The position numbers were made by a program, and so were the translations under genes. The notes below the pieces were generated by a model. It saw only the letters and a program-made list of their open reading frames with translations. It was not told where the DNA came from and ran no database searches. This document shows positions 376 to 50,290 of a DNA stretch of 64,000 bases, piece after piece. Origin of the DNA: a virus; the IMG/VR virus record IMGVR_UViG_3300025137_000014, positions 1 to 64,000 of that record. One strand, written 5' to 3'. The stretch's first letter is position 1, and each line of letters opens with the position of its first letter.

Positions 376-411
376 AAAACTTGACAATATAGAGAATCAT
401 GCTATTATAAT
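376..411 (+). promoter_or_regulatory. sigma70-type early promoter with GANTC in the spacer
   Basis: AAAAC-TTGACA(381)...GAATC(394-398)-ATGC-TATTAT(403-408). Confidence 0.75.
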
Positions 412-440
412 ACTATATGATAAAGAAAGAGAGAGAAAAT

Positions 441-656
441 ATGACAGTGAAAACACTAGAACAAGCCTTTGCTGATGCGGTAGTTAACCCAGAGAACATT
501 AAGGCTAACGGTAACATCGACTGGAACTATGTTGATGCTGACTGTTATATGGATATGGCAAATGCTAATGATGGTATTACAGTTGATAGTACCAAGTATA
601 TGGAACAATTTAATGCGTTGGCTGACGCTTATTTAAGCCAGAAAGTGAGTATATAA
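441..656 (+). CDS. Hypothetical phage protein
   Basis: ORF from the track. Start moved to ATG 441, downstream of the promoter and a GAGAG SD-like run. Confidence 0.65.
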   Translation: MTVKTLEQAFADAVVNPENIKANGNIDWNYVDADCYMDMANANDGITVDSTKYMEQFNALADAYLSQKVSI

Positions 657-862
657 TGAGTAAAACAGGAGCATGGATCATGGACCTAGAAGAACAATTC
701 TGGGACAAGTGTGTTGACTTTATAAAGAACAATGAAGACGTTTCACTAGCACAAGCAGAAGCGATTGAGTATGCAAAGGATAACCTTTCACACATCGAAG
801 AAGATATCATAGAAGATACTGTTTCCGAAATGTGGAACGACTATTGGGTAAACTATTCATGA
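656..862 (+). CDS. Hypothetical acidic phage protein
   Basis: TAATG-coupled to the upstream ORF. Confidence 0.65.
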   Translation: MSKTGAWIMDLEEQFWDKCVDFIKNNEDVSLAQAEAIEYAKDNLSHIEEDIIEDTVSEMWNDYWVNYS

Positions 863-1032
863 GTACGTTTATGGGTGTTGCAGGTTTAGTCTGCTTAGTA
901 TTAGGTGTTGGGTGTATCGACGGTGGTTATAACGGTGTCCCGATGAATGATAACTGGATTGGTTTCGGGTTGTTTTCCGTTACTGGTATCCTACTTATGT
1001 TTGGTTGTTTAGCTACACAAGAGAGTGATTAA
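859..1032 (+). CDS. Small membrane protein
   Basis: ATGA overlap at 859-862; two hydrophobic segments. Confidence 0.55.
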   Translation: MSTFMGVAGLVCLVLGVGCIDGGYNGVPMNDNWIGFGLFSVTGILLMFGCLATQESD

Positions 1033-1250
1033 TGGGACCGTTCGACTTTAATAAACAATGGGAACGTGCTGATGCACTTAAGCAGTTCATACACCGTCTC
1101 CCTAAAGATATAGACCCGAACTATAGGGCTATGTGGGAACAGAAGCTACAGAACATAGCATGGGACCCAAAGACTTATTACGATAGATACAAATTGATAT
1201 ATTATATTAACGACCACAAAGCAACAATACAATGGAGAGAGAATGCATAA
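1032..1250 (+). CDS. Hypothetical phage protein
   Basis: TAATG-coupled ORF, 72 aa. Confidence 0.6.
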   Translation: MGPFDFNKQWERADALKQFIHRLPKDIDPNYRAMWEQKLQNIAWDPKTYYDRYKLIYYINDHKATIQWRENA

Positions 1251-1593
1251 AGATATAGGTAAGCAGAAGTTCAGAGTAAAGACCCATTACGTCACATGGG
1301 TAGAGTACGATGTCGTAGCTAACTCTAAAGAGGAAGCAGAAGAAGCCGTACTAGAGAACGGTGGCATAGAGAAGGTCCACTATAGAGAAGGGTATCATAA
1401 GGATGAACCTGTTGAGGTCTATGCACAAGACTGGAACTCAGACTATAGCGGTAGCTTATATACAACTAACAAGATAGCAGAGTGTATACCCTATGAAGAC
1501 TCAGACGGTGTAGACTATGACGATTACAATTGGAGTACAGATGAATGGGAATGGAAGAAAGAACACAACGGGACGACTAAAGAAGAAGTCTAA
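1243..1593 (+). CDS. Hypothetical acidic phage protein
   Basis: 116-aa ORF with GGAGAG SD, overlapping the upstream stop. Confidence 0.65.
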   Translation: MHKDIGKQKFRVKTHYVTWVEYDVVANSKEEAEEAVLENGGIEKVHYREGYHKDEPVEVYAQDWNSDYSGSLYTTNKIAECIPYEDSDGVDYDDYNWSTDEWEWKKEHNGTTKEEV

Positions 1594-1741
1594 GTTAACA
1601 GACGTATGGGAAGCACCTGATGGTACACACGTGTCTATAGCAGACATGGACTATCTACTAGAGTGTAACAAGACTAAGGCTAGTGAATGGTTAGAAGGGT
1701 ATCGTAAGTGGAAGCGGACACAGGTACAGGACAAACCCTAA
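1541..1741 (+). CDS. Hypothetical phage protein
   Basis: In-frame ATG at 1541 with GGAG SD; start uncertain. Confidence 0.45.
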   Translation: MNGNGRKNTTGRLKKKSKLTDVWEAPDGTHVSIADMDYLLECNKTKASEWLEGYRKWKRTQVQDKP

Positions 1742-1965
1742 TTGATAGTGCCACGGGTTTTTCCTGGCAACGGTGGCAAATAAAATAAAAACACAATTCC
1801 GGAACTTTTGTATATATAGCGGAAGGTGGCTTGGCCTTAAGGTGGCGTTTGGTCGCAGACCATTTTTTGCTTCTGTTTCTGTATAGGGAACCACTTTTCC
1901 ACACTGGATACTATCCCAAAAAAATTACAGAATATTTTTATTAAACCCTTTCCCTATAGGGCTCC

Positions 1966-1999
1966 AAAACTTGACAAGTGAGTGAGAATCATGTATACT
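1966..1999 (+). promoter_or_regulatory. sigma70-type early promoter with GANTC
   Basis: TTGACA 1971, 17-nt spacer, TATACT 1994; GAATC at 1986-1990. Confidence 0.75.
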
Positions 2000-2019
2000 A
2001 TGTATATCTTAATTAAGGA

Positions 2020-2358
2020 ATGTCCCCTATGATTGTCTCTAATATCTCTAGCTATATCTCTACTAAGTCAACCGCTTTTGCTACTACTATGTATGATAAC
2101 TTCTTATCTAAGCATGATTTAGAACCCGACACTGAATTTGTAAACTTCAAGCATGACTATCTAGTGATTGAACCAGGATTAACTCATTTAGACTTTGCAG
2201 ATTGCTTAACTGAACATGAGTATCGTGAACACGTTAAGACGTATGAAGATGATGCGTTTATGTGTGTACCCTTTCACCCACATAGTCAGTTAGCTATTCT
2301 ACATCACAATAATATGATTGCTGATGAGATATATAATAATCCAAAATACTATCAATAA
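2020..2358 (+). CDS. Hypothetical phage protein
   Basis: 112-aa ORF with AAGGA SD, directly after a promoter. Confidence 0.6.
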   Translation: MSPMIVSNISSYISTKSTAFATTMYDNFLSKHDLEPDTEFVNFKHDYLVIEPGLTHLDFADCLTEHEYREHVKTYEDDAFMCVPFHPHSQLAILHHNNMIADEIYNNPKYYQ

Positions 2359-2390
2359 AAACTTGACAAATACCGAATCAATGTTATATT
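2358..2390 (+). promoter_or_regulatory. sigma70-type early promoter with GANTC
   Basis: TTGACA 2363, CGAATCA 2374-2380, TGT-TATATT 2385. Confidence 0.7.
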
Positions 2391-2420
2391 AATTAAGTAA
2401 TGAGAGAAAGGTTTAACTCA

Positions 2421-3507: not shown

Positions 3508-3538
3508 AACTTGACAGAATAGAGAATCATGTTATACT
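3506..3538 (+). promoter_or_regulatory. sigma70-type early promoter with GANTC
   Basis: TTGACA 3511, GAATC 3524-3528, TGT-TATACT 3533. Confidence 0.75.
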
Positions 3539-3571: not shown

Positions 3572-3865
3572 ATGAATAAAGAATTAGAAAATGCAATTAT
3601 CGCCCTAGGGCGTATTAAGTCTTCTGGTGACTTATCAGTACTAGCAGACCATTTTCGTAGACACCAAACATATCTAGGCAAGCAAAATAGTGCAGGTCTT
3701 AAGATTGGTGATACAATCGAATGGGAGTATCGTGGGGTACTCAAGCAAGGCGTTATTACTAAGAACAATCGTTCAACAGTAGATGTATCTAACGCAGGTA
3801 ATAACCCAATCTTTCGAGGTAATACTCGACTACATAAATCAATGATAACACGAAAGGTAGCTTAG
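3572..3865 (+). CDS. Hypothetical phage protein (possible SH3-like small beta barrel)
   Basis: GAGAGG SD; LKIGDTIEW...GVITK...TVDV pattern. Confidence 0.65.
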   Translation: MNKELENAIIALGRIKSSGDLSVLADHFRRHQTYLGKQNSAGLKIGDTIEWEYRGVLKQGVITKNNRSTVDVSNAGNNPIFRGNTRLHKSMITRKVA

Positions 3866-3866
3866 A

Positions 3867-4169
3867 ATGACTAATCTATATATGTTAGACCACGTAGATG
3901 GTAACTTTAACGGAGACAATATGTCTGATAACATCATTGTTGACCATCAATTTGGTGACACTGATGGAATGAGTATCAGTACTGTTGACTTCTCAACTGT
4001 CAAAGTAATGAATGTAGAAGGCATCGATTGGACTGATGCTCCTAAATTCTGTGATGCTTATATTAGTGAGGCTGAAATCGATGGCGTAGAAGCCACTGAT
4101 GAACAGTTGGAAGAGATTAATAATAACGGTGAGTTCCTGCTTGATGCAGTGTACGACTATATCTATTAA
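3867..4169 (+). CDS. Hypothetical acidic phage protein
   Basis: 100-aa ORF; its C-terminal VEGIDWTDAPKFCDAYISEAE...EQLEEIN pattern is common in marine phages. Confidence 0.65.
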   Translation: MTNLYMLDHVDGNFNGDNMSDNIIVDHQFGDTDGMSISTVDFSTVKVMNVEGIDWTDAPKFCDAYISEAEIDGVEATDEQLEEINNNGEFLLDAVYDYIY

Positions 4170-4330
4170 TGGAATCGCTTCAAGTATTTTGGGAAACACT
4201 TCAACCCTTAATCATTACCGGGATAACTGTTGGTGTTGTACTAGCAGTTATAGTCGGCTCTATTAAATTCGGTTGGCGATATGCGCCCTGGATTGTTCTA
4301 TTAGGACTAATAATTTTATTCCTAAACTAA
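4169..4330 (+). CDS. Small two-TM membrane protein (53 aa, missed by the track)
   Basis: MESLQVFWETLQPLIITGITVGVVLAVIVGSIKFGWRYAPWIVLLGLIILFLN*; TAATG-coupled. Confidence 0.65.
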   Translation: MESLQVFWETLQPLIITGITVGVVLAVIVGSIKFGWRYAPWIVLLGLIILFLN

Positions 4331-4340
4331 ATAGCGAGGT

Positions 4341-4820
4341 ATGAAAATGATAATTCGAAATATATTCGTAGGGATCCTGCTACTTACTGTGTGGGGTTTA
4401 ATTATATCTGGTACGGTCTCAATGGCTAACGCACAGATGGTAGACAATGCACCTATGGATTTAAACCCAACAGAAAAACCAGATGTAGAGTTAACTCCTG
4501 ATGGTCCAGACACAGTTGAAGTTAAACTACTTTGTCGTTTTGTGGGTACATTAGAATTTGCAACGGCTATGTACATACTTCCAAAACTTGGACGTGCAAG
4601 TATCAAGCCATTAACAGACAAATATTCGGCACTACCTTGGGTACCAGTACATCTACAACCAAGCAATGACGGTACTGAATATCGTTTATGGTTACAGTTA
4701 GATGGTGGCTTTATGGTATTTGCAGTTAATAGGCAAACTCTAGCCTATTCAGTTTTACAATCAATCGATATGGGCGGCAGACAACTGTATACAGGCGGTG
4801 AATGTCAGATTGTAAAATAA
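4341..4820 (+). CDS. Hypothetical membrane-anchored or exported protein
   Basis: GAGG SD; hydrophobic N-terminus. Confidence 0.65.
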   Translation: MKMIIRNIFVGILLLTVWGLIISGTVSMANAQMVDNAPMDLNPTEKPDVELTPDGPDTVEVKLLCRFVGTLEFATAMYILPKLGRASIKPLTDKYSALPWVPVHLQPSNDGTEYRLWLQLDGGFMVFAVNRQTLAYSVLQSIDMGGRQLYTGGECQIVK

Positions 4821-4829
4821 ATATAGTAT

Positions 4830-5048
4830 ATGAAGATAATATACAATAATCAACTAATAGACGTAGACGAGTTAAGTGGAATAATGACCGAAGATGAACT
4901 TATACACTTAATAGAAGTATTTGGATTTCCTGGTTGGGCATCACCGGGTTTCTATCGTTGTGTAGAATTAGGTTTTATTGAAGAAGGTCTTGATGAATGG
5001 GATTACATTCATGCTTATATAGAACGTGACCCGGCTACTCTACATTAA
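4830..5048 (+). CDS. Hypothetical acidic phage protein
   Basis: 72-aa ORF. Confidence 0.6.
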   Translation: MKIIYNNQLIDVDELSGIMTEDELIHLIEVFGFPGWASPGFYRCVELGFIEEGLDEWDYIHAYIERDPATLH

Positions 5049-7306: not shown

Positions 7307-7340
7307 AATCCTTGACAAATTATACGAATCATACTATAAT
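7307..7340 (+). promoter_or_regulatory. sigma70-type early promoter with GANTC
   Basis: TTGACA 7312, 17-nt spacer, TATAAT 7335; CGAATCA 7325-7331. Confidence 0.8.
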
Positions 7341-7372: not shown

Positions 7373-7765
7373 ATGACACCGGTACTTTATATACTAATGC
7401 GTAATGACTTAGATAGTCTTAACCCTGGAAAAGCAATGGCGCAAGCCTCACATGCTAGTAACCAGTTTGTACATAACTTTGCCCAAGGAACAGATACAGA
7501 ATTATATAACATGTGGTCTAATGAGACTACACAGGGTTTTGGGACAGTTCTTGTTCTAAGTGTTAATGAAACACAATTACAATCTTCTATTATGATGGCA
7601 GAGAAACATCTATCACATTGTGGAATAGTACATGACCCAACTTATCCTATTCAAGACGGAGAAGTAGTACATCACATACCACTTGATACCTGTGGTTATG
7701 TATTTGGTGACAAGGAAGATCCAGTTATTAATGCAATCTTAGGTTTGTTTCCATTACATGCATAA
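7373..7765 (+). CDS. Peptidyl-tRNA hydrolase type 2 (PTH2-like)
   Basis: LYILMRNDL...NPGKAMAQASHA matches the PTH2 signature GK..AQ..HA; 130-aa size fits. Confidence 0.75.
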   Translation: MTPVLYILMRNDLDSLNPGKAMAQASHASNQFVHNFAQGTDTELYNMWSNETTQGFGTVLVLSVNETQLQSSIMMAEKHLSHCGIVHDPTYPIQDGEVVHHIPLDTCGYVFGDKEDPVINAILGLFPLHA

Positions 7766-7798
7766 ACTTGACAACTATGAAAAAGGTGTTATTATAAT
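7764..7798 (+). promoter_or_regulatory. sigma70-type promoter without GANTC
   Basis: AAAC-TTGACA 7768, TGT-TATTAT 7790. Confidence 0.65.
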
Positions 7799-9292: not shown

Positions 9293-10084
9293 ATGAAAGA
9301 AGTAGTTTTAGTAACAGGTGGATTCGATCCATTACATTCAGGTCATATAGAATACTTCAAGTCTGCTAAAGCATTAGGCAATGAACTAGTGGTAGGCATA
9401 AACTCAGATGAATGGTTAACTCGTAAAAAAGGTAGAGCATTTATGAACTTTGCTGAACGCAAAGTAATTATTGAGGCACTAGAAGTAGTTGACAAGGTTA
9501 TTGACTTTGATGATAGTGACGATACAGCCAGTTACGCATTATACAAGATACAATCTATGTATCCAATTGGTACTAAGTTTATATTCGCAAATGGCGGAGA
9601 TAGAGGTAATACTACAACACCCGAATACAAACAATATGCAGAAATGCCATGGGTTAGATTTGAATTTGGTGTAGGTGGTACAAACAAAAGAAACTCTAGT
9701 AGTTGGATACTTGATGATTGGAAAACACAGAGAACTCATAGAACATGGGGATACTGGCGAGTACTTGATGATAAACAACCTAAGGTTGGGCAGAAGATAA
9801 AAGAACTAGTTATCAACCCACGCAAGAGTTTATCAAATCAGAAACATAGATATAGAAACGAATATTGGTATGTCTTAGAAGGAGATATCATGATTGAACT
9901 AGAATTTAACAATAAAAAAGAAGCAATCTATCTGCGTCCACATGATACATTCTTAATACCTAAGGAATGTTGGCATAAAACAACGAATATTGGTGATGAT
10001 CCAGCACATATTATTGAAGTACAATATGGTGAAAGTTGTGAAGAATCAGACATTTTAAGAAAAGAAAACACTCTAAAAACTTGA
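9293..10084 (+). CDS. Cytidylyltransferase-like (RfaE-II/TagD type) domain fused to a cupin (ManC/PMI C-terminal type)
   Basis: TGGFDPLHSGH (HxGH), FANGGDR, then WGYWRVL...LSNQKHRYRNEYW...IIEVQYG. Start set at MKEVVLV. Confidence 0.8.
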   Translation: MKEVVLVTGGFDPLHSGHIEYFKSAKALGNELVVGINSDEWLTRKKGRAFMNFAERKVIIEALEVVDKVIDFDDSDDTASYALYKIQSMYPIGTKFIFANGGDRGNTTTPEYKQYAEMPWVRFEFGVGGTNKRNSSSWILDDWKTQRTHRTWGYWRVLDDKQPKVGQKIKELVINPRKSLSNQKHRYRNEYWYVLEGDIMIELEFNNKKEAIYLRPHDTFLIPKECWHKTTNIGDDPAHIIEVQYGESCEESDILRKENTLKT

Positions 10085-10108
10085 CAATATAGCGAATCGT
10101 GTTATAGT
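10076..10108 (+). promoter_or_regulatory. sigma70-type early promoter with GANTC
   Basis: TTGACA 10081 (contains the upstream TGA stop), CGAATCG 10093-10099, TGT-TATAGT 10103. Confidence 0.8.
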
Positions 10109-10139
10109 ATATACATAATCAACAACAGAGAGGTTAATT

Positions 10140-11812: not shown

Positions 11813-12199
11813 ATGAAAAGAATTATTAAACTAGACCCAGATATTAATCCAATAACAGTTAAAGACGGTAGAGGTATAATCAGTACTTACTATCCTCAAA
11901 CAACTGATATTAAAGAATGGAGTTATATAGTAACTCTCAAGGGTTCTGTACGTGGACATCACTTACATAAAGAGTTTGACGAATATATTATGTTCGTAGA
12001 GGGCAGTGGTGTATATACTGAACTAACTGATGGTAAAGAACTAGTTACTCCTGTAGCAACTGGTGATTGTATCTTCATCCCTAGGTTAACACCTCATACT
12101 TTTTATCCAACTTCTGATTCAAAAGCAATCGCTCTTATAACAAAGAAATGGGACGATTGTATTGAACCGCTGACAAGAGTTGACAATGAAGAAAAATAA
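11813..12199 (+). CDS. Cupin, NDP-sugar isomerase/epimerase-like (RmlC/FdtA superfamily)
   Basis: GSVRGHHLHKEFDEYIMFVEG and IPRLTPHTF cupin motifs; NDP-sugar gene context. Confidence 0.7.
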   Translation: MKRIIKLDPDINPITVKDGRGIISTYYPQTTDIKEWSYIVTLKGSVRGHHLHKEFDEYIMFVEGSGVYTELTDGKELVTPVATGDCIFIPRLTPHTFYPTSDSKAIALITKKWDDCIEPLTRVDNEEK

Positions 12200-13388
12200 A
12201 AAGATAATTAGAATGATTGACAATGAACGTACTGATTGTAGAGTATGTGGAAGCCCTGTAAAAAAAATAATTGACTTTGGTAGAATACATATCAATGATT
12301 TTCCTACAACACCTGATGATACACCTGGCGAAGCACCTATGGTACTAGACCAGTGTGAGAAATGTGAGTTAGTTCAGCTTAGACACACAGTTAATCCAAA
12401 AATATTATATGGTGAACACTATTGGTATGAGAGTGGATTAAATTCTAAACTTAAAGATAACTTATTTGATATTGCAAGTTATGTAAATGAACACACTGAT
12501 AAAGGTGATGTAGTATTAGACATTGGTGCTAATGATGGTACGTTGTTAAGTGCAGTTAACTCAGATAGATATAGAGTCGGGTGTGAACCAGCACCTAATC
12601 TAATTAAGAAGTTAGTGAAAAACTGTGAAGCAACTATAAACGATATGTGGCATTATAAACTAATGCAAGGTAAGAAAGCTAAAGTTATTACTGCTATTGG
12701 TATGTTTTATGATATGGATAATCCAAATGACTTTATCTACAGTGTCAATGAAGCATTAACAGATGATGGTATTTTTATTGCACAGTTAATGACACTTGCT
12801 CCAATGCTTAAAATGAAAGACTTGGGTAATGTATGTCATGAACATTTAGAATATTATAGCTATAAAAGTCTTGTAGAGTTATACGAAAGCAATGGTCTTG
12901 AAATTTATAAAGTAGTAGAGAACGATATACAAGGTGGTAGTTATCAACTATGGGCTAGAAAAAAGAATGAAGGCAGTATAGAATATCATGAAGATTTATC
13001 TTCTTTAGAAACTTTCTTTAAAGATGTAGAACGAAATGGTGCATTGCTAAGAAGTGTATTACAAGATTCAAAAGTAGCTGGCAAAAAGAATTATGTCTAT
13101 GGTGCTAGTACAAAAGGAAATACAATGTTACAGTTTTGGAAACTGCATGATTTATTTGAAGGTGCCGCAGAAATTCATCCAGATAAAGTAGGCAGATATA
13201 CAGTTGGCACAGGAATACCTATTGTACATGAAGATGATGCAAAGAAAGATGCAGACTTGTTCTTTGTTCCTAATTTTGGATTTAAAGATATGTTTGTTGA
13301 AAAAGAAAGTGAATGGATTGAACAAGGAGGTAGAATGCTCTTTGCAATGCCAGATGTAAACGTAGTAGAAAAGAAATGGACGAAGTAA
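12180..13388 (+). CDS. NDP-sugar C-methyltransferase (TcaB9/EryBIII-like, Zn-binding class I MTase)
   Basis: CRVCGS...CEKCELVQL zinc site, LDIGANDG, HEHLEYYS, YGASTKGNT. Exact start uncertain. Confidence 0.85.
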   Translation: MTMKKNKKIIRMIDNERTDCRVCGSPVKKIIDFGRIHINDFPTTPDDTPGEAPMVLDQCEKCELVQLRHTVNPKILYGEHYWYESGLNSKLKDNLFDIASYVNEHTDKGDVVLDIGANDGTLLSAVNSDRYRVGCEPAPNLIKKLVKNCEATINDMWHYKLMQGKKAKVITAIGMFYDMDNPNDFIYSVNEALTDDGIFIAQLMTLAPMLKMKDLGNVCHEHLEYYSYKSLVELYESNGLEIYKVVENDIQGGSYQLWARKKNEGSIEYHEDLSSLETFFKDVERNGALLRSVLQDSKVAGKKNYVYGASTKGNTMLQFWKLHDLFEGAAEIHPDKVGRYTVGTGIPIVHEDDAKKDADLFFVPNFGFKDMFVEKESEWIEQGGRMLFAMPDVNVVEKKWTK

Positions 13389-16116: not shown

Positions 16117-17007
16117 CTACACCTGTTCATAATACCATTCATACGTTTTAGCGAATGCTTCTTCCATTGAAAATTTAGGAACCCAACCTAACTCTTTTAA
16201 ACGTGTATTGTCAATCGCTCTATTCTTAATTCCTTCAGGTCTATCAGTATTAAACCATAAGTTACCTTTGTATCCACTAACTTTAATTAGTAATTCAGCA
16301 ATCTCTCTAATAGATATCTCATACCCACTTGCTACGTTGACTGTATCGTATTTGTCATTATTTAAAATTATATCCATTCCTGAAACTGCATCTTCAATAT
16401 AAAGTATATCTCTGCTTTGATTTCCAGAACCCCATATCTCAATGCTATCTGTATTATTCTTACATGCATCTACAAACTTCTGCATCAACGCACCGATTAC
16501 ATGAGCATGTTCGCCTGTTCTGTCATGTGGTCCAAACATGTTTGTGTTTATCGCTGTACGCCAATTGGTATCATACTTTTCATTACTTGCTCTACACTGA
16601 TACATTCCCATTAGCTTAGGCAAAGCAGTTGGGAAATATGTAGCATAAGGTTCACCTTGAAGTAGTTGTGTTTCTTTATAAGGTTGATTTCCTATCTCAG
16701 GATAACTACACGTGCTTCCTTGTAATAATACTCTATCTGTTTTTGCAACATGACATGCTTCAAATATATTATTTTGAATTGTTAGGTTCTTAATCATTAA
16801 TTCAAAACTCTTATCTAGGTCTTCTTGCAGTCCACCGACAGTAGCGGCATTTATAACGACATGTGTATGTTTCAATTTGATATCTTGCTTAGTTGAGATA
16901 TTAGATGTGAAGTCTACATTCTGTGTATTGCCTCCTTCTGCATCTGGTATTAATTTCTTATACCATGTGCCTACAAGTCCTCTATCTCCTGCTATATAAT
17001 ATTTCAT
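16117..17007 (-). CDS. fcl: GDP-L-fucose synthase-like epimerase/reductase
   Basis: IAGDRGLVG, INAATVGG, GSTCSYP, NMFGPHD, WGSGNQSRDILYIED. Confidence 0.8.
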   Translation of the reverse strand: MKYYIAGDRGLVGTWYKKLIPDAEGGNTQNVDFTSNISTKQDIKLKHTHVVINAATVGGLQEDLDKSFELMIKNLTIQNNIFEACHVAKTDRVLLQGSTCSYPEIGNQPYKETQLLQGEPYATYFPTALPKLMGMYQCRASNEKYDTNWRTAINTNMFGPHDRTGEHAHVIGALMQKFVDACKNNTDSIEIWGSGNQSRDILYIEDAVSGMDIILNNDKYDTVNVASGYEISIREIAELLIKVSGYKGNLWFNTDRPEGIKNRAIDNTRLKELGWVPKFSMEEAFAKTYEWYYEQV

Positions 17008-20000
17008 TATTCTTTATCCTTATGTATTATAAAGTAATCATTCAATTCTGGAGTGGGACAATGTTTAGTTGACTTTGGTGTTTCGTGTCCTCTATGTGAA
17101 TTTTGCCAATGTGAGATATGTCCTACTTCTCCATCAAATCCTTCGAATGAAGAATACGCATATGGAAATGGTTGTATGACTGCGGAGCCACCTGGTTTTA
17201 ATTGTGTTAATATACAATCTACAAAGTGTTGTATGTCACTGCTTTCGAAAGGAGCAAAGAAAGTATTTCTATCTTTATTCTCATCAGTAATTTGCCAAGC
17301 CTGTGATATATTACCATTTACTAATCTAACAATCTTATCTGTTTTCCAAAATACATTTGACATATTCATAAGTATTATATCATATTTTTCATTAGGATCA
17401 AAGTCTTTTCCGTATGTGTGTTCTATATTATTAAGTAAATCAAAGTCTTTGCGTGGTTGTATATGTACATCTGCTGGTCTTACTATACCTAATGTATTCC
17501 AGACAAATTTAAGTTCATCTAACGAGTCGCCCGCTTCTTTATATGAGTTAGTAGAATATACATTAGTAAATCCTTCCTCTTTTAAAAAGTGTGGCATAAA
17601 ACCAAAATGTGTTCCTATATCTAAAATCTTAATATCTTTAGGTGCATAGTTTAAACCCAAGTTATCAAGTATCATAGAATGATTAACCCAATATGCAGAC
17701 TCTAAAGATGATTGCAAGTACTTAGAATGTTGAACAAGTTTTCTATTTAAAGATTTAAATTTTTTCTTATGTGTATCTTTAAATGTATCAAAGTAATTTT
17801 CAAACCTATAACCAATTCTACCAGTACTATATGGTTTTCTAAAACGCCAAGAACCAAATTCATTATAGTTTATAATATCCCAATGATAGTTATCATTAAC
17901 CCAATCTTTTTCTTCTTGAGTTAATTTACGTGGAGTATCAACTTTTTCTTCCTTTAATATTCTAGCAATATGTCTTGACGAATCTCTATGCCCAAACGTT
18001 CGGTGCCAATCCTTGCCTCGTTCATGATATCCTGTATTATGTATATCATCCATGTCTATCGTCCAAGCTACATTTAATCCATGTTGACTCGCACTTTGTT
18101 GTTGAAGTTCTTTCAAATCTTCTGGTTTATTAAAATCTTCACCCAGTATTTTACCTGTTGTCTCTAAAAATGATGCAAATCTTTTATGTGGATCTCTTGT
18201 AATTGCTATAGCAGGTATATCTTTTATGTTATCAAGATTTTTTTTATTAACTAATCTATAACCTAAATGAGGTGCTACTTTTTTAGCAACAGCTTTATCT
18301 AGTAATCCAACTGTAGGTATTATGATTGTGTTAGTATTCTCACTATACCAAACGTAGTTGTATATAGAATTGTGTGTCACATCGTCAAATTTGGCGTCCT
18401 CAAGCTGTGCTTTGTAGTCACCATTACTTAAAGATTCAAATGCACGTTTATATACTAATGGAGCATAAATATTTTTGTAATGATAGTAATTAAAATCAAG
18501 TACTTCTAGTAATGATTTATCATACTTCCATTCAGTACCATCTCTACGTAATTCAGTATAATCTACAATATTTTTAATTACTTTTGCTATCGCCTCTATA
18601 CGTTCAGCATAAGGCAATTCATCATATGATTCATCCCAATAGCCATCAAATGTTTTGAAGCCTAGATTTCTTAAGTTCTTAAGATAACCTTTATCGCCTA
18701 CAATAACGAATGGCTTTTTAGATAATATTGCTTGTGAAAGTTTTTCACTTATAGAAACATGCTCGTCACTAGATGTAAACTCTGTTATTAGTTCTAGGTA
18801 TGACCTTCTCCTATAAGGTAACATTTCTTCTAATCTATTTAAGGAAGACCCTGCTAACCATTCGTCCCGTGCATGTTGCATACTAAATGGTAATTCTTTT
18901 TTATAATACTCTCTAATAATTTCATCAGCTATGTCTTTGTTATATGAATAGCCGATACGTCCTTCAATAGACTGTATATCACTATCATATAACGGATCGC
19001 CTATACCGTAGTTATCTGTTCCTAAAAAACTATAGTAAGCATTATCTTTTATATTTGTATGATTTTCAATTAGCTTTGCTAATATATCAAGTCTATGGTT
19101 TCTAATTCTTTTATTAAGAAATAAGATATGTTTCTTAGAAATGTTAGCGATATCAAAGTTCCATTTTTCGTCATACTTATTTTCTATCTTGCCCTGTTCA
19201 TAGTCTGCAAAACGTAAGGTACTTGTTGATACAGTTAAGAATTCAACATCGCCTTCTACTTTTGTATCTTCAAACATTGTCCAGTATTTTACATTTTTAA
19301 CATTTTTCTTTTTAGAATAGAACTTGTTTATTTTTTCATAATAAGATATTGGTATAAGTTCTGCACCCATATCAAATATAATACATGCTTTTCCTTCTTC
19401 TAATTCTTTATTAATAGTTTTGTCTTTAATAGTTTTATCAATTAATTTATCAGTCAATGTAAGATAATCATATCCATCAAATTCGTCTTCACCAAAATGT
19501 TCCCATGCAATTAATGGAGATATAAAATAATACTTTTCAAATCTAACATCATCATGTATTTCGTCTATAAAGTTTTGATACATATCATAATGCTGAGGTT
19601 CTGCGTGTATCGTTTGTATTCTAGGCGAACGGTTAATCATCCATTTATTATAAAACATTCGGGGCATTATCTTTTCGGTCTTTCTCATACTTTGCATAGT
19701 AGCATTAAATTCTGTATTAGTTTCTTTTCCACAAAAGATTGAACATGTACGCAATCTTTTATTGTTAACGTTATTGTCTTTCCAATTATCAGGCCAGTGT
19801 TTCTGAAACATTGGGCCATTAATTATGTCTTCTAATTTAGTGTGTTCTAAACTTATTTTATCTCTACCAAAATCATTAATAAATTCTTGTAGCTGAGTTG
19901 TTTCTTCATCAGGGAAAGCGTATAGTTTACTTGCAGTCATACAACACGGAAATACTAATCCTTCACTAGTAACAAAAATACTTTTTGGTTTAATAACTAT

Positions 20001-20894
20001 GCAATCAATTTTAGTTTTACCCATCTTGACTTCGTGCGGAGTAAGTGGTCTATCTTTATCCCATTCATATTTATGGGTATAGGCTTCTTTACCAGAAGTT
20101 TTTGATTTAGTAAAATGTATTTCTTGTAAAATCTTTTCAGGATTGTCAGTATCATCTCCTTCAACTTTTTTAAAAGATGAGTTTGCAATATAAGTATTAA
20201 TCAATTCATTAGTATTACCATCAGACGGTGGATGTATATCGTAATCTTTTAATCCACGTTCATTAAATACTGCTAGTGTCGGTTGTGCTTTTCCTTCGTC
20301 ATTATTAACAAATCCTAATGCTTTTTTAGAATAGAACTCATGTATACCAATTTCTTTCGCTAACTGCTTTGCTTCTTCTACTTGGTGTTGATTATGTTTG
20401 AATACTAAGAACTCCCATCTGGCATGTCCACCACCTTTGATATAATTTTTCATAGCAGACATAATCTTAGACCAGTGTGTTCCTCGTCTATAAATCCAAT
20501 TAGTATTTTCTAGTCCGTCTACACTAAAAGTCATATGACCATTGGTGCCTATTATCTTGCCTAGTTCTTGCCAAAACTTTGGATTACGGCCACTGGCATT
20601 TGAATTCATAGTAATTTTAATATTTGGATTTATAGATTTTAGATATTTTAGAATATCAATAAGTTCTGGGTTAGTCATAGCATCACCATAATTTCCACAC
20701 AGTGACATTCCAAATAATTGTGCTAAAAATTTCTTATCGAAATACTTTTTGAATTGCTCTAACTTTACATAAGTTTCTTTGTATCTTGGATTCTTTCGAC
20801 CGCCCTGTTCTCTGCGATTACATACAGGACATAATGCATTACAAAGACTACTACTTTCGAAATCTAAATGTAATATCTCATCATGAGTGTACAT
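17007..20894 (-). CDS. 1295-aa multidomain fusion: radical SAM+SPASM, glycosyltransferase-like, sulfotransferase-like, class I methyltransferase
   Basis: CNALCPVC, C-terminal VFPCC...CSIFC; SISEKLSQAILSKKPFVIVG...LGFKTFDGYWDESYD; AITRDPHKRFASF; KILDIGTHFG. Confidence 0.75.
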   Translation of the reverse strand: MYTHDEILHLDFESSSLCNALCPVCNRREQGGRKNPRYKETYVKLEQFKKYFDKKFLAQLFGMSLCGNYGDAMTNPELIDILKYLKSINPNIKITMNSNASGRNPKFWQELGKIIGTNGHMTFSVDGLENTNWIYRRGTHWSKIMSAMKNYIKGGGHARWEFLVFKHNQHQVEEAKQLAKEIGIHEFYSKKALGFVNNDEGKAQPTLAVFNERGLKDYDIHPPSDGNTNELINTYIANSSFKKVEGDDTDNPEKILQEIHFTKSKTSGKEAYTHKYEWDKDRPLTPHEVKMGKTKIDCIVIKPKSIFVTSEGLVFPCCMTASKLYAFPDEETTQLQEFINDFGRDKISLEHTKLEDIINGPMFQKHWPDNWKDNNVNNKRLRTCSIFCGKETNTEFNATMQSMRKTEKIMPRMFYNKWMINRSPRIQTIHAEPQHYDMYQNFIDEIHDDVRFEKYYFISPLIAWEHFGEDEFDGYDYLTLTDKLIDKTIKDKTINKELEEGKACIIFDMGAELIPISYYEKINKFYSKKKNVKNVKYWTMFEDTKVEGDVEFLTVSTSTLRFADYEQGKIENKYDEKWNFDIANISKKHILFLNKRIRNHRLDILAKLIENHTNIKDNAYYSFLGTDNYGIGDPLYDSDIQSIEGRIGYSYNKDIADEIIREYYKKELPFSMQHARDEWLAGSSLNRLEEMLPYRRRSYLELITEFTSSDEHVSISEKLSQAILSKKPFVIVGDKGYLKNLRNLGFKTFDGYWDESYDELPYAERIEAIAKVIKNIVDYTELRRDGTEWKYDKSLLEVLDFNYYHYKNIYAPLVYKRAFESLSNGDYKAQLEDAKFDDVTHNSIYNYVWYSENTNTIIIPTVGLLDKAVAKKVAPHLGYRLVNKKNLDNIKDIPAIAITRDPHKRFASFLETTGKILGEDFNKPEDLKELQQQSASQHGLNVAWTIDMDDIHNTGYHERGKDWHRTFGHRDSSRHIARILKEEKVDTPRKLTQEEKDWVNDNYHWDIINYNEFGSWRFRKPYSTGRIGYRFENYFDTFKDTHKKKFKSLNRKLVQHSKYLQSSLESAYWVNHSMILDNLGLNYAPKDIKILDIGTHFGFMPHFLKEEGFTNVYSTNSYKEAGDSLDELKFVWNTLGIVRPADVHIQPRKDFDLLNNIEHTYGKDFDPNEKYDIILMNMSNVFWKTDKIVRLVNGNISQAWQITDENKDRNTFFAPFESSDIQHFVDCILTQLKPGGSAVIQPFPYAYSSFEGFDGEVGHISHWQNSHRGHETPKSTKHCPTPELNDYFIIHKDKE

Positions 20895-22090
20895 TAAAAG
20901 TGTCCTTCGAATTCAGGTAAAAAGTCTAGTATGTTTTGTTTTCTAATCTCATCAAGATTTCTAGTATATTCTTTTGCTTTTTCCCATTTTTCTTTTCGGT
21001 CTGGCCCACCAAACATTTTTTTAAATTCTTGCATCTTCCATTCATCAAATACATTAGAAAACTTATTATGTATTGCATCACGCATTGCTTTAGGTAATAC
21101 TGCCGGAGATAATATATCAGGATCATATACGTAATTGTGGTGTACCCAAACACCATGTTCTCTATGGAAGTAATTATAAAAATCACCTAGTGTACTATAA
21201 TTCATCCAAGACACAGTTTGTGTTACATCAATCTCAAACCCTTCATTCTTTAATCTTAAGAAATTCTTTTCAACATCATTCCACTTTGTAGGATATCGAA
21301 TATAATGATTCCTATCACCTAAGTCATCAATACTACAACTTACTTTGACATGGTCAAACTTTCTCCATAAGTCTATAACTTTATCGTTCATATTAGTCAT
21401 GTTGATATTATACCAGAGTTTTATATCTGTTTTTCCTAAGTCAACAAGTCTCTCTAAGAATTTAAAATGTTCTTTAATTAATGTAGGTTCTCCGCCGTTG
21501 ATGTAAAATGTTTTTACTTTATCACAGTGTTGTAGCAAGTCATCCCAAAATCCCTCACGCTCAGGCCATCTAAAGCCTTCCATGGTATCATATGTTGTAA
21601 GTTTAAATGTAGTTTTCTTCTGTAGTGCATCATAATCATTACGCCATTTACTTGAACTTGCTGGATTGCAAGTACGACATGCAACATTACAAACATTACC
21701 TAATCTTAATTCAACAAACTCTAGTTGAACGTCTTTCATAAAGCCATCGCTATCAGTGGCGTCCCTAGCGACTTCTACAGTGTACTCAGGATAGTTTTTA
21801 ATTTCTTCTGTTCTTTTAGAAGCCATGCCTTTTGCTTCTTCTGAATAGCAACGCATACATGCTATAGGCTTTTTGCCGTCTAATACTTCTAGTCTTGCTT
21901 TTTTATAGCTTTCACTATTCATAGTATCAAACACAGTGTCACGATTAAGATTATAAAATCTATCACCATCACGTGAACTACTCAATGAATTGCGGTGGTC
22001 TGCAACACAACAATGTGTTACACCTCCATGCGGATGCGTGGCAAGATGTTGAAATAATAATGGGCAAAAAGTTTCGCTCACGATAACCAT
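20894..22090 (-). CDS. Radical SAM protein with N-terminal SPASM/Twitch-like Cys cluster
   Basis: FCPLLFQHL...THCC...CMRC; LGNVCNVACRTC; INGGEP. Confidence 0.88.
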   Translation of the reverse strand: MVIVSETFCPLLFQHLATHPHGGVTHCCVADHRNSLSSSRDGDRFYNLNRDTVFDTMNSESYKKARLEVLDGKKPIACMRCYSEEAKGMASKRTEEIKNYPEYTVEVARDATDSDGFMKDVQLEFVELRLGNVCNVACRTCNPASSSKWRNDYDALQKKTTFKLTTYDTMEGFRWPEREGFWDDLLQHCDKVKTFYINGGEPTLIKEHFKFLERLVDLGKTDIKLWYNINMTNMNDKVIDLWRKFDHVKVSCSIDDLGDRNHYIRYPTKWNDVEKNFLRLKNEGFEIDVTQTVSWMNYSTLGDFYNYFHREHGVWVHHNYVYDPDILSPAVLPKAMRDAIHNKFSNVFDEWKMQEFKKMFGGPDRKEKWEKAKEYTRNLDEIRKQNILDFLPEFEGHF

Positions 22091-22944
22091 CCTAGTTCTT
22101 TTAATTTTGTTTTTAGTATTTTGTTTGTGAATGCATAATACCCTGCTTGTGTACTATGACCATCTGGTGCTACGCCGTGTCCGCTGTTAACTGAATAATC
22201 TAGTATGCCTGTATCTATGTAATCAATATTAACTTTACTCAACGCTTGTTTTAATTTTGGTAATACTGATGGGTCAAAATTAAATGCATCTTCCCAACCA
22301 AATAATATTAGTAATTTATTATTAAAAGACTTGATTGCAGATAGTGTAGACAATATTACATGAAGTCTATATGGATCTGGTTCTGCGCCTTTGCCATGAA
22401 GTGAATATATATTTCTTGTTTGTGATAATGTTTTCTTACTTATATCGAACATGCCTGTACACGAAGGGTCAAACCCGTATATTTTCTTTTCAGTGAAGTG
22501 TTCATCTTCGATAACTTGAAAACATCCCCAATCTTTAACCTCATCTTTTTTATATGCACGTGCAAGTTCATTACCATAGAAATGAGAAGATTGTTGATTT
22601 ATAGGTATAGTAACCCTACCAGGGTTTGTTATCTGAAAAATTACTAAATCATCAGCATCAATCTTATCAGTTAGCATCAAGTTAGACCAAATAGCTATTT
22701 GAGAATCAAGCCCTGCTCCACTCATCGCATAGCTTTCCATATGTATATCATCAGAAGACCACTCGCATGGATTAAAATTATTGACTGCATTAATTCCTAT
22801 TTCTTTTGCAAGTCTCCAATCATCTTCTAAATCATTACGAAATGAAGTTTCTTCGCATTGGTCATTTAGCCAAAGCCAATGATGTTGTGCAGTGTGACTA
22901 CAACCAAATGCTCTAATTTTTATTTTGTCTTGTCCACCACTCAT
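22078..22944 (-). CDS. SGNH-hydrolase-like protein
   Basis: AFGCSHTA, YAMSGAG, FQITNPGR, PDGHST (DxH). Confidence 0.6.
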   Translation of the reverse strand: MSGGQDKIKIRAFGCSHTAQHHWLWLNDQCEETSFRNDLEDDWRLAKEIGINAVNNFNPCEWSSDDIHMESYAMSGAGLDSQIAIWSNLMLTDKIDADDLVIFQITNPGRVTIPINQQSSHFYGNELARAYKKDEVKDWGCFQVIEDEHFTEKKIYGFDPSCTGMFDISKKTLSQTRNIYSLHGKGAEPDPYRLHVILSTLSAIKSFNNKLLILFGWEDAFNFDPSVLPKLKQALSKVNIDYIDTGILDYSVNSGHGVAPDGHSTQAGYYAFTNKILKTKLKELGWLS

Positions 22945-26596: not shown

Positions 26597-28154
26597 ATTT
26601 GCTCTCGTATTCTTCCTTAGCTTCGTTCCAGAAAGCAGTCATTTCAGGAAATGTTTCTAAAAAGTTTAATCCCCTACGTTTATCATATTGTGAAAAATAT
26701 TCATGAAACCGTATTAATTGACTACTTAATTCATCATCACTCATATTTAGCCCTTCTTTGGCCCATGCCAAATCACGCTCAAGTTTTAATACTTCGTAAT
26801 TCTTAAATCCTGTATACTTTCTGCCATATAAATCATTCTCTAATACATTGGCTTTCATAAAATCAATGTTATCTTGTATCATGTCTAGTAATTCTTGGTC
26901 TGCTAGTTGTATTGTCATCCAATCAGGATATCTTAAATACGGAATATCAAACCAAACTCTTTGACGTTTCTTTCTTACAAATGGTGGGTGTTTAAAACCA
27001 TGATGGTCAGGCGGTTGAATTATTTTATCTTCTTGATTTTCATATCCAAATTCTTCACGTAAGTCTAATATCATTTGCAAGAACCCACGTAGATTTGTGA
27101 TACTTAATAACTGAAATGTATTGATAAAAGAAATTTCTGTACCATCAGTTTCACTTAACACTCTACGACAATTCTCATATAGTGTATCAAAGTTTAAACC
27201 GTCACGCATATATTCTGCTTGTTTACCTACACCATCAACACTTACATACAAACTAAAGTGTTTACATGCTGGTGCAACATACCAGTGATTACCGCTATCA
27301 GGATTGAAACGTTTTGGATCTTCCCATACACGAATTTTTTCTAATGCTTGTATCTTTTCAATAAACTTATCCATTAACTTAGGACTTGGAGGTGACATGT
27401 TTGACGTAATACTTAAATCAAGAAAAGGATTAGGGTTCTCGTTAACATAGTCAAATACTTTGAATGTATTATTATCCATAAGAGGCTCACCGCCTGTCAT
27501 ACGAAATACTTTCAAGTCTCTGTATATCTGTGGAAACCATTCCCAAAATGCTTCAATGTAAGGATTGTCTTTACGTGCTACTTCAAGTGGCATAAGACCT
27601 GTCTTACGTAAGTAATCAATGTTGTTATGACCAGTGCCGTTAGAGAACTTAAAGTCACCATGCTTCTTAATATCATCTTCCCACGCTGTACTCAAGTGAG
27701 GTGAGCAATAGCTACACTTTAGATTACATGCTTGATTGAAGTTTACTTCTACATAGCGTGGAGTGATATTATGGTCAAAGTCATTGTTTACAACTTCGTC
27801 CCAAGCATCTTTAACCCACCATTCACTTGAACGATAATGTCTGTCACTAAGTCTGCCGCCTTCGGGGGCATCAGGAGCGTCTTCGACATTCCAGCAATAC
27901 TGGCAACCTTCAGGACGGGTGCCGCATTTCATTTGCTTTCTTTCTTCTAGTTTGAATGTGGTGTTGTGTAATGCATTAACATCTTTCTTAAGTTCTTCTA
28001 AAGGAATAGGATGTGTCGGTGGATGATAACAACTATGAGTACGCCCTTGAGGCAGATGCAAACTTACTTGCAACCATTTAGCCATACACATAGATGGCGA
28101 AAGAGAATTTAACTTTTCTTTAGTTGCTTGTGCATCATCATCATAGTTTGCCAT
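26586..28154 (-). CDS. Radical SAM protein with N-terminal SPASM/Twitch-like Cys cluster (paralog of the adjacent gene)
   Basis: MCMAKW...THSCYHP...CQYCW; QACNLKCSYC; MTGGEP. Confidence 0.88.
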   Translation of the reverse strand: MANYDDDAQATKEKLNSLSPSMCMAKWLQVSLHLPQGRTHSCYHPPTHPIPLEELKKDVNALHNTTFKLEERKQMKCGTRPEGCQYCWNVEDAPDAPEGGRLSDRHYRSSEWWVKDAWDEVVNNDFDHNITPRYVEVNFNQACNLKCSYCSPHLSTAWEDDIKKHGDFKFSNGTGHNNIDYLRKTGLMPLEVARKDNPYIEAFWEWFPQIYRDLKVFRMTGGEPLMDNNTFKVFDYVNENPNPFLDLSITSNMSPPSPKLMDKFIEKIQALEKIRVWEDPKRFNPDSGNHWYVAPACKHFSLYVSVDGVGKQAEYMRDGLNFDTLYENCRRVLSETDGTEISFINTFQLLSITNLRGFLQMILDLREEFGYENQEDKIIQPPDHHGFKHPPFVRKKRQRVWFDIPYLRYPDWMTIQLADQELLDMIQDNIDFMKANVLENDLYGRKYTGFKNYEVLKLERDLAWAKEGLNMSDDELSSQLIRFHEYFSQYDKRRGLNFLETFPEMTAFWNEAKEEYESKYGS

Positions 28155-48120: not shown

Positions 48121-48146
48121 ATCGTATAAACTTCGAACTTTTTGTA

Positions 48147-48175
48147 TTGACTTTTTATTTAATTTAATGTACAAT
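48147..48175 (+). promoter_or_regulatory. sigma70-type promoter for clpP
   Basis: TTGACT, 17-nt spacer, TACAAT. Confidence 0.6.
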
Positions 48176-48213
48176 CGTTATTAATCATATAAAAATGGAG
48201 AATAAATAAAAGT

Positions 48214-48819
48214 ATGCCAAATTTAGTACCAATGGTCATAGACCAAACTGCAAATGGAGAACGTAGCTTTGATATATTCTCTCGTTTGCTCAAAGAAAGA
48301 GTTATATTCTTAACAGGTGAAGTAAATGACTATCAATCTGACTTAATCTGTGCCCAATTTCTGTTCTTAGAAGCAGAAAACCCAAAAAAAGATATACATT
48401 TTTATATCAATTCACCAGGCGGAGCAGTAACAGCCGGAATGGCAATCTATGATACTATGCAATTCATTCAACCAGATGTTTCAACAATGGTTTTAGGACA
48501 AGCATGTAGTATGGGTTCATTGTTGGCAACTGCGGGAGCTCCCGGCAAAAGATTTATGTTACCTCATGCAAGACACATGATACATCAACCAAGTGGCGGC
48601 GCCGGTGGACAGGCAACAGATATGGAAATTCAAGTAAAAGAAATTCTAAAAGTTAAAGAAAGTCTTACGAATATCTATGTTAAACATAACTCAAAAGGCA
48701 AAACATTTAATGATTTACATGCTGATATGGAGCGAGATAAATTTATGGGTCCGGAAGAGTCATTAGAATATGGCTTAATCGACAAGGTTATTAACGAGAG
48801 ACTCGACACTCCACAGTAG
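48214..48819 (+). CDS. clpP: ATP-dependent Clp protease proteolytic subunit
   Basis: [43 protein letters not shown] (Ser), MIHQP (His), MERD (Asp). Confidence 0.95.
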
Positions 48820-48822
48820 TCC

Positions 48823-48855
48823 AAAACTTGACAAACTAGCGATTCGTGTTATAGT
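48823..48855 (+). promoter_or_regulatory. sigma70-type early promoter with GANTC (GATTC variant)
   Basis: TTGACA 48828, CGATTCG 48840-48846, TGT-TATAGT 48850. Confidence 0.8.
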
Positions 48856-48878
48856 AATATCTTAATAAGGATATTACC

Positions 48879-49856
48879 ATGATAAAAAAGTTAGTAATCG
48901 CTAGTTTGTTCTTATCTTCGTCTGCATTCGCAGATAGCTATGGGTATAGTTACAAAAATCTTACAAATATAATGGATAATAAAACTGCAAATATGATGCA
49001 GTTTTCAGATAACTCCAAGCATATGCCACGTGAACGATTAAAGTTTGGAAACTTTTATGGACGTGATGCATTAGAAATTACATTAAAACAATCTGATACC
49101 GGTAGTATCGGTGATGCTGGTCGTGATATGGGTTGGGGCAATGCCCAACGTATTCAAATACGTGAGAAAGAATATAATCGTGAAATGCGAGACGGAAAAG
49201 AATATTGGTATAAGTTATCAGTATTCATGCCTAAGAATTTAGGAAGTAACAAACACACACTTAGCTTGTTTGATTTAAAATTAAGAAAAAACAAACAAGA
49301 AGGTACTCAAGTATTCTCATGGAATATCACTAATGGTGAATTAAATTTTCAACTTGAAACTGGTGATTGGTTATGTTGGACACGTAAAATAAAAGGTGGG
49401 GCAAATCGTAAACAATGCTCTTTTAACGATAATTTTATCTCAATGCCAAAAAGTCAAAATGCATATCGAAACAAATGGGTTGATGTTGTCATGCAAATCA
49501 ACATGATTAAAGGAAAAGAAATGTTTCGTGTATGGGCAAACAATGAATTAATATTGTCATTTGCTGATGATATCAATCCTTTTGGTCGTGAATTGGGATT
49601 TAAGTTTGGATTATATAGGCATCACATGACTACTAAACTAAAAGACGATGTTGCATATTATTCTGATATCAAACGAGGTAATTCTTGTTTTGATTTGGGT
49701 GTAAACTGTGGTAAATTTATGGATGATTATACTGGTTTTGGTGCATTTAATATGAAGAAAGTGCTACATGTAGAGAAATATGTAGAGAATAATGGACCTA
49801 AACTAAGATTTAATGATATTTGTTACAAAAAAGGGTGTGAAAACTTGACAAAATAG
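48879..49856 (+). CDS. Secreted polysaccharide-lyase-like (beta-jelly-roll) protein
   Basis: Signal peptide (SSAFA); QRIQIRE...EYWYKLSVFMP, WVDVVMQI, FKFGLYR pattern of the Polysacc_lyase/heparin-lyase-like family. Confidence 0.65.
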   Translation: MIKKLVIASLFLSSSAFADSYGYSYKNLTNIMDNKTANMMQFSDNSKHMPRERLKFGNFYGRDALEITLKQSDTGSIGDAGRDMGWGNAQRIQIREKEYNREMRDGKEYWYKLSVFMPKNLGSNKHTLSLFDLKLRKNKQEGTQVFSWNITNGELNFQLETGDWLCWTRKIKGGANRKQCSFNDNFISMPKSQNAYRNKWVDVVMQINMIKGKEMFRVWANNELILSFADDINPFGRELGFKFGLYRHHMTTKLKDDVAYYSDIKRGNSCFDLGVNCGKFMDDYTGFGAFNMKKVLHVEKYVENNGPKLRFNDICYKKGCENLTK

Positions 49857-49872
49857 CGAATCGTAGTATAAT
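49841..49872 (+). promoter_or_regulatory. sigma70-type early promoter with GANTC
   Basis: TTGACA 49845 (inside the last codons of the upstream gene), CGAATCG 49857-49863, TATAAT 49867. Confidence 0.8.
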
Positions 49873-49905
49873 ATACTTATGTTGAATGAAAGAGAGGACT
49901 TAACT

Positions 49906-50253
49906 ATGACTACATACCAAGAAATTGCTAACGAGGCAAAAACACAGGCTGTACAAGCCGTTGACACATTTTTCAATAACGTTCTAAAAGGTGAAGACCA
50001 ATACTCATGTGGTTTTGCATGGGTTACAGTTTATCCTGAAAATAAGGGTAATACTAAACTCGGTAAACAAGAACGTAGAAGTTTAGAATCTATTGGATTT
50101 AAAAAAGACTGGACAGGCAAAGCATGGCAGTTGTGGAATCCAGGTGATTACGCAGGTCAAAATATTGATTGTAAAGAAGAAGGTGCTCAGGCTTATGCTA
50201 AAGTAATGAAATCACATGGCTTCAAAGCATATGCAGGTTCGAGGTTAGACTAA
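49906..50253 (+). CDS. Conserved phage hypothetical protein
   Basis: GAGAGG SD; CGFAWV...KEEGAQAYAKVM...AYAGSRLD pattern. Confidence 0.75.
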   Translation: MTTYQEIANEAKTQAVQAVDTFFNNVLKGEDQYSCGFAWVTVYPENKGNTKLGKQERRSLESIGFKKDWTGKAWQLWNPGDYAGQNIDCKEEGAQAYAKVMKSHGFKAYAGSRLD

Positions 50254-50257
50254 CTAA

Positions 50258-50290
50258 AAAACTTGACAAACTAGCGAATCGTGTTATTAT
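50258..50290 (+). promoter_or_regulatory. sigma70-type early promoter with GANTC
   Basis: TTGACA 50263, CGAATCG 50275-50281, TGT-TATTAT 50285. Confidence 0.8.

Follow-up and report, generated by a model that had tools for sequence, protein, structure and literature searches.

The stretch of DNA considered here, referred to as the window, comprises the first 64 kb (64,000 nucleotides, nt) of a 187,122-bp virus record in IMG/VR (IMGVR_UViG_3300025137_000014) that is 51% complete by CheckV estimate. The window has a GC content of 34%, and its source is an uncultured jumbo phage of T4-like type, encoding a Gp23 major capsid protein and a T4-type portal. The capsid protein shares 65-69% identity with its counterparts in the jumbo phages PA5oct, GAP32, SCTP-2 and Vibrio 2.275.O and in Sinorhizobium phage Phosso. 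Two large relatives were available whole, namely G001 (342,607 bp with terminal repeats, rated 100% complete; capsid protein 99.7% and ClpX 92% identical) and G002 (342,181 bp; capsid protein 87% and ClpX 67% identical). The subject of this report is a GANTC pentamer, hereafter the box, that occupies a nearly fixed position in the spacer of nine promoters in the window and that is a real, selected promoter element. The original prediction had listed nine such sites, and all of them were found at the coordinates given there, on the plus strand and inside promoters of the form TTGACA-N16/17-TAnnnT. These promoters, the open reading frames (ORFs) that they drive and one comparator are as follows.

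381-408, plus strand: box promoter; -35 TTGACA at 381-386, AGAATCA with GANTC at 394-398, TGC, and -10 TATTAT at 403-408; drives a run of small ORFs from 417.
1971-1999, plus strand: box promoter; AGAATCA with GANTC at 1986-1990, 3 nt to the -10 TATACT; the box is lost (TAATC) in the G001 and L087 orthologues.
2363-2390, plus strand: box promoter; CGAATCA (other strand TGATTCG) with GANTC at 2375-2379, 5 nt to the -10 TATATT.
3511-3538, plus strand: box promoter; AGAATCA with GANTC at 3524-3528, 4 nt to the -10 TATACT; drives the ORFs at 3572-5048.
7312-7340, plus strand: box promoter; CGAATCA with GANTC at 7326-7330, 4 nt to the -10 TATAAT; 17-nt spacer without TG; drives a 130-residue ORF at 7373-7765 (phrog_1866, function unknown).
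7768-7795, plus strand: comparator from the non-box class; the same AAACTTGACA start and TGTTATTAT end, with a spacer that lacks GANTC.
10081-10108, plus strand: box promoter; CGAATCG with GANTC at 10094-10098, 4 nt to the -10 TATAGT; drives a 526-residue FG-GAP repeat protein.
48828-48855, plus strand: box promoter; CGATTCG with GANTC at 48841-48845, 4 nt to the -10 TATAGT; drives a 325-residue ORF; GATTC is kept in four orthologues.
49845-49872, plus strand: box promoter; CGAATCG with GANTC at 49858-49862, 4 nt to the -10 TATAAT; drives a 124-residue ORF (phrog_22149, function unknown).
50263-50290, plus strand: box promoter; CGAATCG with GANTC at 50276-50280, 4 nt to the -10 TATTAT.

The finer points of the prediction were also borne out. 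Specifically, the box is separated from the -10 hexamer by 4 nt in seven promoters, by 3 nt at 1986 and by 5 nt at 2375; a single copy reads GATTC (48841); and six of the nine boxes sit in CGAATCR or CGATTCG. Three further box promoters lie in the record outside the window, at 114914, 116424 and 162496 (the last with a 7-nt gap), for a total of 12. Their common make-up is an A-tract, CTTGACA, a spacer of 16-17 nt, usually TGn, and TATAnT. The resulting consensus, AAAACTTGACA-N16-TATAnT, is repeated ahead of small ORFs whose functions are mostly unassigned. When the -10 hexamer is set at -12 to -7 of the predicted start, the box falls at -21 to -17, a position held exactly in nine of the 12 promoters of the record and to within 1 nt in two more. 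Three of the copies (10081, 114914 and 116424) are almost identical across approximately 45 nt. The first transcribed bases (10109-10125, and the corresponding bases behind every box promoter) are conserved as well, reading ATATACATAATCAA or TTAATTAAGTAATCAGA, both with TAATCA, and the cassette therefore extends beyond the promoter proper.

With respect to chance occurrence, which had been estimated as improbable, a search for TTGACA-N6-9-GANTC-N3-5-TANNNT returned nine matches in the window, all on the plus strand, whereas in 100 dinucleotide-preserving shuffles the count averaged 0.15, peaked at 3 and in no case reached nine. We also compiled a catalogue of promoters blind to GANTC, taking every TTGAC[AT] followed by a 16-18 nt spacer and TAnnnT; since this catalogue ignored spacer content, the result is independent of any box-based choice of promoters. 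Among plus-strand candidates, the pentamer exactly at -21 to -17 was GANTC in 9 of 36 for the record, 18 of 81 for G001 and 8 of 66 for G002, and no other pentamer was seen there more than three times. The positional enrichment that the original prediction had proposed to look for is thus present: across the 183 pooled candidates the G of the box lies at -21 in 35 and within 1 nt of that position in five, with a small additional cluster of GANTC at -28/-27. The control word TCNGA was found at -21 in none of the 183. On the minus strand, candidates with GANTC anywhere in the spacer numbered zero in the record and one each in G001 and G002. The candidates split into two classes, with and without the box, and near-miss variants are not prominent.

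Evidence that the box itself is under selection comes from orthologous promoters. For 11 promoters, 31 orthologous sequences from G001 and other viral contigs were aligned, and differences were counted against this record; the regions around these promoters are 70-94% identical between the record and its orthologues. The fraction of positions that differ in each part is given below.

-35 element: 2%.
Spacer, the 6 nt that precede the box: 36%.
One base on each side of the box: 31%.
G, A, T and C of the box: 7%.
Central base, N: 23%.
TG of the extended -10: 0%.
-10 hexamer: 9%.
Surrounding DNA (far flanks): 16-20%.

As the G, A, T and C differ in 7% of comparisons and the N, the flanks and the upstream spacer in 23%, 31% and 36%, selection acts on GA.TC itself and not on a copied cassette. 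The original prediction had proposed that relatives varying these four bases as freely as N would refute the methylation/GcrA read-out, and the observed 7% versus 23% favors that idea. Its claim that N varies holds in part: N does change between orthologues, but it is not free: among 154 distinct box promoters, gathered from the three genomes and other viral contigs, N is A in 126 cases and A or T in 150. Individual promoters follow the same pattern. The G001 orthologue of promoter 2363 keeps GAATC at a 4-nt gap despite an altered spacer, and that of promoter 10081 reads CGATTCG, such that N is altered and the box retained. Promoter 50263 differs from its orthologues at up to six of the seven nt that precede the box, while the box itself and all that follows it are identical. 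Promoter 114914 is represented by seven versions, namely GCGATTCG, GTGATTCG, TCGAATCG, ACGAATCA, AAGAATCG and TAGAATCA, the last of these seen twice, and in G002 eight distinct upstream spacers precede an identical CGAATCATGC.

The placement and flanks of the box were next compared with published sites for GcrA, the alphaproteobacterial RNA-polymerase cofactor that reads GANTC methylated by CcrM. Haakonsen et al. (2015) reported YGAKTCK as the preferred GcrA word, with TGATTCG as the best form, and placed the sites of the direct GcrA regulon in two zones, one of them "narrowly centered around -20" (PMC4647560). Wu et al. (2018) described YGAKTCG, with upstream peaks at -20 and -30 (PMC5887438). 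The center of the phage box lies near -19 of the predicted start, matching the published peak near -20 (PMC4647560). In terms of sequence, all 12 boxes of the record conform to YGAKTCK on one strand, as do 127 of the 154 across relatives, whereas GANTC sites at large in these genomes conform in 24-31% of cases. CGAATCG (43) and CGAATCA (42) are the most frequent forms, and they read CGATTCG and TGATTCG on the other strand. A second GANTC directly follows the -35 element, near -27, in 17 of the 154.

Elsewhere in these genomes the word is avoided. GANTC occurs 331, 615 and 657 times in the three genomes, against composition expectations of 595, 1093 and 1207 (ratios of 0.54-0.56), and GAATC stands at 0.60-0.66 of its Markov expectation (z of -6.5 to -11.4). 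GAGCT, CGATC, TCGCG and CCCCG are also among the words most depleted relative to Markov expectation in the record and G001, as is commonly seen where restriction sites are avoided. Because these other depleted words resemble restriction sites, the depletion may stem either from restriction directed at GANTC in host populations or from selection against stray sites for methylation or for a reader. Whichever cause applies, the GANTC word is seen by something in the host.

We turn to the genes that could write or read a mark on the box. Searches of the 187-kb record and of five relatives, including a complete one of 342.6 kb, gave no match to gcrA (PF07750) and no ccrM-type gene (PF01555). A weak PF01555 match in the relatives proved to be a radical SAM/SPASM protein, not a methylase. 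A scan for the motif [DNS]PP[YFW] yielded a protein of 181-190 residues with NPPY in G001 and G002 that matches phrog_799, annotated "DNA methyltransferase" (E value 2e-30); an exoribonuclease and a PrkA kinase from the same scan were set aside. The phrog_799-like gene lies at G001:63455-64000 (L387:3455-4000), with its G002 orthologue at L404:14664-15236 on the minus strand, and adjoins the DNA polymerase gene. It is absent from the fragment in this record, its locus falling outside the part of the genome that the record covers, and homologues are spread among phages whose hosts belong to many phyla. This protein could write a phage methylation mark. As neither a CcrM-type writer nor a GcrA reader was found in the phage or its relatives, both would be supplied by the host, unless the phrog_799-like protein serves as the writer.

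With respect to the host, an alphaproteobacterium is likely on the basis of a single feature, a circularly permuted transfer-messenger RNA (tmRNA) encoded at record positions 159593-159952, outside the window. Its best Rfam match is alpha_tmRNA (RF01849; 122 bits, E value 2e-34), and this alpha-type two-piece form, the sole pointer to Alphaproteobacteria, is kept in both G001 and G002. Phage tmRNA type follows host lineage with one exception, the OM43 phage Melnitz (Buchholz et al., PMC9004378). Among cultured phages, the tmRNAs that match most closely are those of Melnitz, three roseophages and Phosso; a BLAST search of the tmRNA against 401 alphaproteobacterial genomes gave matches of 30-58 nt only, mostly in the tRNA-like part. 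The tmRNA tag is ANANYQPEMAMAA and those of the relatives are ANDNYQPEMAMAA and ANTNAAPAMAKLAA; the gene is driven by a sigma-70-type promoter of the non-box class. Of 101 alphaproteobacterial genomes sampled, 65 had GcrA, genomes of 0.9-1.4 Mb among them; GcrA was also present in all four named alphaproteobacterial genomes but not in one named gammaproteobacterium. Three unpublished genomes enter the tallies as single members and support no claim by themselves: G050 (one of the 65 with GcrA, and also part of the ClpX comparison and of the chromosome set described below), and G250 and G449 (both in the ClpX comparison).

Taken together, read-out of the box by a host system of the GcrA/CcrM type is the best explanation, and one that we hold with moderate confidence. 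The box promoters would form a distinct class of host sigma-70-type promoters, predicted to fire early, in which the selected 5-bp element GA(A/T)TC at -21 to -17 would be read by a GcrA-like cofactor on the host RNA polymerase. Reading would probably take place when the box adenines are N6-methylated by a CcrM-type enzyme, and it would aid polymerase binding and opening of these promoters on injected phage DNA. On this reading, these promoters would fire early in an alphaproteobacterial host that has both GcrA and CcrM, their sites would be methylated, and GcrA would be the reader. The CcrM/GcrA read-out as originally proposed is partly supported, namely by box position, by the YGAKTCK word, by conservation of GA.TC and by depletion elsewhere, but not by gene content, as GcrA- and CcrM-type genes are missing from the record and the complete relative.

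Several observations weigh against this explanation. The G of the box has been lost in one orthologous promoter (TAATC in the orthologues of 1971). The predominance of A at N means that an asymmetric word, CGAATCR, read by another protein fits equally, and the R of the right flank could belong to the extended -10 (RTGn). Being close to consensus as they stand, the box promoters may not depend on an activator. A search of 201 alphaproteobacterial chromosomes for the same geometry gave only weak enrichment, with 27 matches versus 15 for the control. Among cultured phages, Phosso, which has an alphaproteobacterial host, carries GANTC in 2 of 53 candidates; Pelagibacter phage HTVC008M has no boxes, and three roseophages have 0-2 each. 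Instead, approximately 40 TTGACA promoters of Phosso (PV764938) share the spacer TTCCT(G/A)TGTTAG (TTCCTGTGTTAG type) about where GANTC sits here. As to the host, the two-piece tmRNA marker fails for Melnitz (PMC9004378). Two protein-based attempts at host assignment gave no signal: TctA was at most 34% identical to any bacterial genome match, and ClpX was 52-57% identical to alphaproteobacterial and 46-56% to gammaproteobacterial genomes. In a ClpX tree the phage protein fell outside the gammaproteobacterial clade, but on a long branch and with no outgroup.

An alternative that we regard as somewhat unlikely is that some other sequence-specific protein binds the box, whether a phage-encoded or virion-delivered cofactor, a shut-off factor for early genes or another host factor, such that methylation is irrelevant and the identity with the CcrM word coincidental. 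The main support for such a lineage-specific pairing of box and partner is the case of Phosso, which has a conserved spacer box of its own at about the same place despite its alphaproteobacterial host. Moreover, a second viral promoter family (in L147, L158, L170, L183 and L223) keeps CAGCGAATGCTG in a spacer that resembles the box region yet lacks GANTC. The bias of N toward A suggests an asymmetric word, the phage yielded no gene for a reader or a writer, and the early ORFs, mostly of unknown function, could include a box-binding factor. Such a protein is harder to reconcile with the footprint. No inverted repeat of about 12 bp or more, of the kind bound by a dimeric repressor, was found at the box; conservation is confined to G, A, T and C, with flanks that are almost neutral, and this is very short for an ordinary operator. 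Position and flank preferences also coincide with the published GcrA data (PMC4647560, PMC5887438), and the genome-wide depletion of GANTC indicates that the word matters outside promoters too.

It is improbable that the box is instead an element intrinsic to RNA polymerase recognition, in which a stretch of spacer, either as an extension of the extended -10 (-16 region) or through a beta-prime-zipper or sigma contact, tunes promoter strength with no additional factor. The box does abut the TG of the extended -10, which is invariant at both positions, and R as a right flank is also found in RTGn motifs. Against this account, 90 further viral promoters that share the -35, the A-tract and TGnTATnnT, chosen irrespective of their spacers, contained no GANTC at that position, and relatives infecting Gammaproteobacteria are without the box. 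Nor is a symmetric G-A-x-T-C footprint predicted by a one-sided polymerase contact. Finally, the idea that the box is unselected and was merely carried along in recent copies of one cassette, as the near identity of 10081, 114914 and 116424 over about 45 nt might suggest, is contradicted by the substitution pattern and can hardly be sustained, because orthologues with 10-25% surrounding divergence keep GA.TC while the upstream spacer (36%; eight different versions in G002 alone) and the N and flanks (23-31%) vary, which cassette copying cannot explain.

The GcrA/CcrM reading is best viewed alongside known systems. Like the GcrA/CcrM promoters of Caulobacter crescentus (PMC4647560, PMC5887438), the phage promoters place GANTC with YGAKTCK-type flanks near -20 of a housekeeping-sigma promoter, and in relatives of this phage a second GANTC lies near -30. 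Unlike the bacterial cases, the sites here belong to a phage, and the promoters around them are predicted from sequence, AT-rich, close to consensus and provided with an extended -10; the sites are fixed to within 1 nt, and their orientation is strongly biased, with GAATC on the coding strand. A phage transcription program wired to a host cell-cycle regulator has a parallel in the CtrA boxes of phiCbK-like and other phages (Mascolo et al. 2022, PMC9437464). PhiCbK encodes a GcrA homologue and Sinorhizobium phages encode CcrM analogues, whereas no genes of either type were found in the phages studied here. In a survey of GcrA sites across the genomes of cultured phages, the same authors detected no positional signal (PMC9437464), in contrast to the fixed-position box described here. 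As in T4-like early promoters, we see strong sigma-70 elements, an A-rich upstream element, repetition before small ORFs and conservation beyond the hexamers, with early timing predicted in the present case. The difference lies in the extra element, which here is a short palindromic methylation word absent from the cultured relatives PA5oct, GAP32 and Phosso. A literature search returned no published report of GANTC boxes in phage promoters, and a string search with the box sequence gave unrelated primers only.

A more specific and rather doubtful extension of the GcrA/CcrM reading is that the N6-methyladenine state of GANTC serves the phage as a clock. Injected DNA, being fully methylated, would be fired by the host GcrA-RNA polymerase complex, under-methylated copies fresh from replication would lose early transcription, and infection would be tied to the CcrM/GcrA window of the host cell cycle with no phage-encoded regulator. 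If read-out by GcrA and CcrM is correct, a widespread group of ocean jumbo phages would begin infection by way of an epigenetic mark, which would be a new means by which a phage senses the state of DNA or the cell cycle of its host, and the box would be a host-range marker for uncultured phages. If the reader is something else, the box would still be a sharply defined, selected promoter element with another partner.

At least 118 stretches of IMG/VR contigs contain the exact box architecture, and a single contig often has several of them. Box counts in cultured phages were 0-2 each for PA5oct, GAP32, Vibrio 2.275.O and SCTP-2 and 1 for Melnitz, and the promoter DNA gave no match to cultured phages. 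A promoter of a different family, in L068 and L080, has a 14-bp near-palindrome, ACCAG(A/G)AT(T/C)CTGGT, that is centered on GANTC and is operator-like. The T4-type late promoter TATAAATA occurs in 10 copies in the record, which was uninformative.

Apart from the promoters, the window holds a cluster of several radical SAM/SPASM proteins on the minus strand at 17007-28154, including a 1295-residue fusion, and a megablast search with the 9.6-kb stretch at 17007-26596 returned no match. A C-methyltransferase encoded on the plus strand at 12180-13388 adjoins this cluster. Outside the window, TctC- and TctA-like transporter proteins are encoded at record positions 174463-177037.

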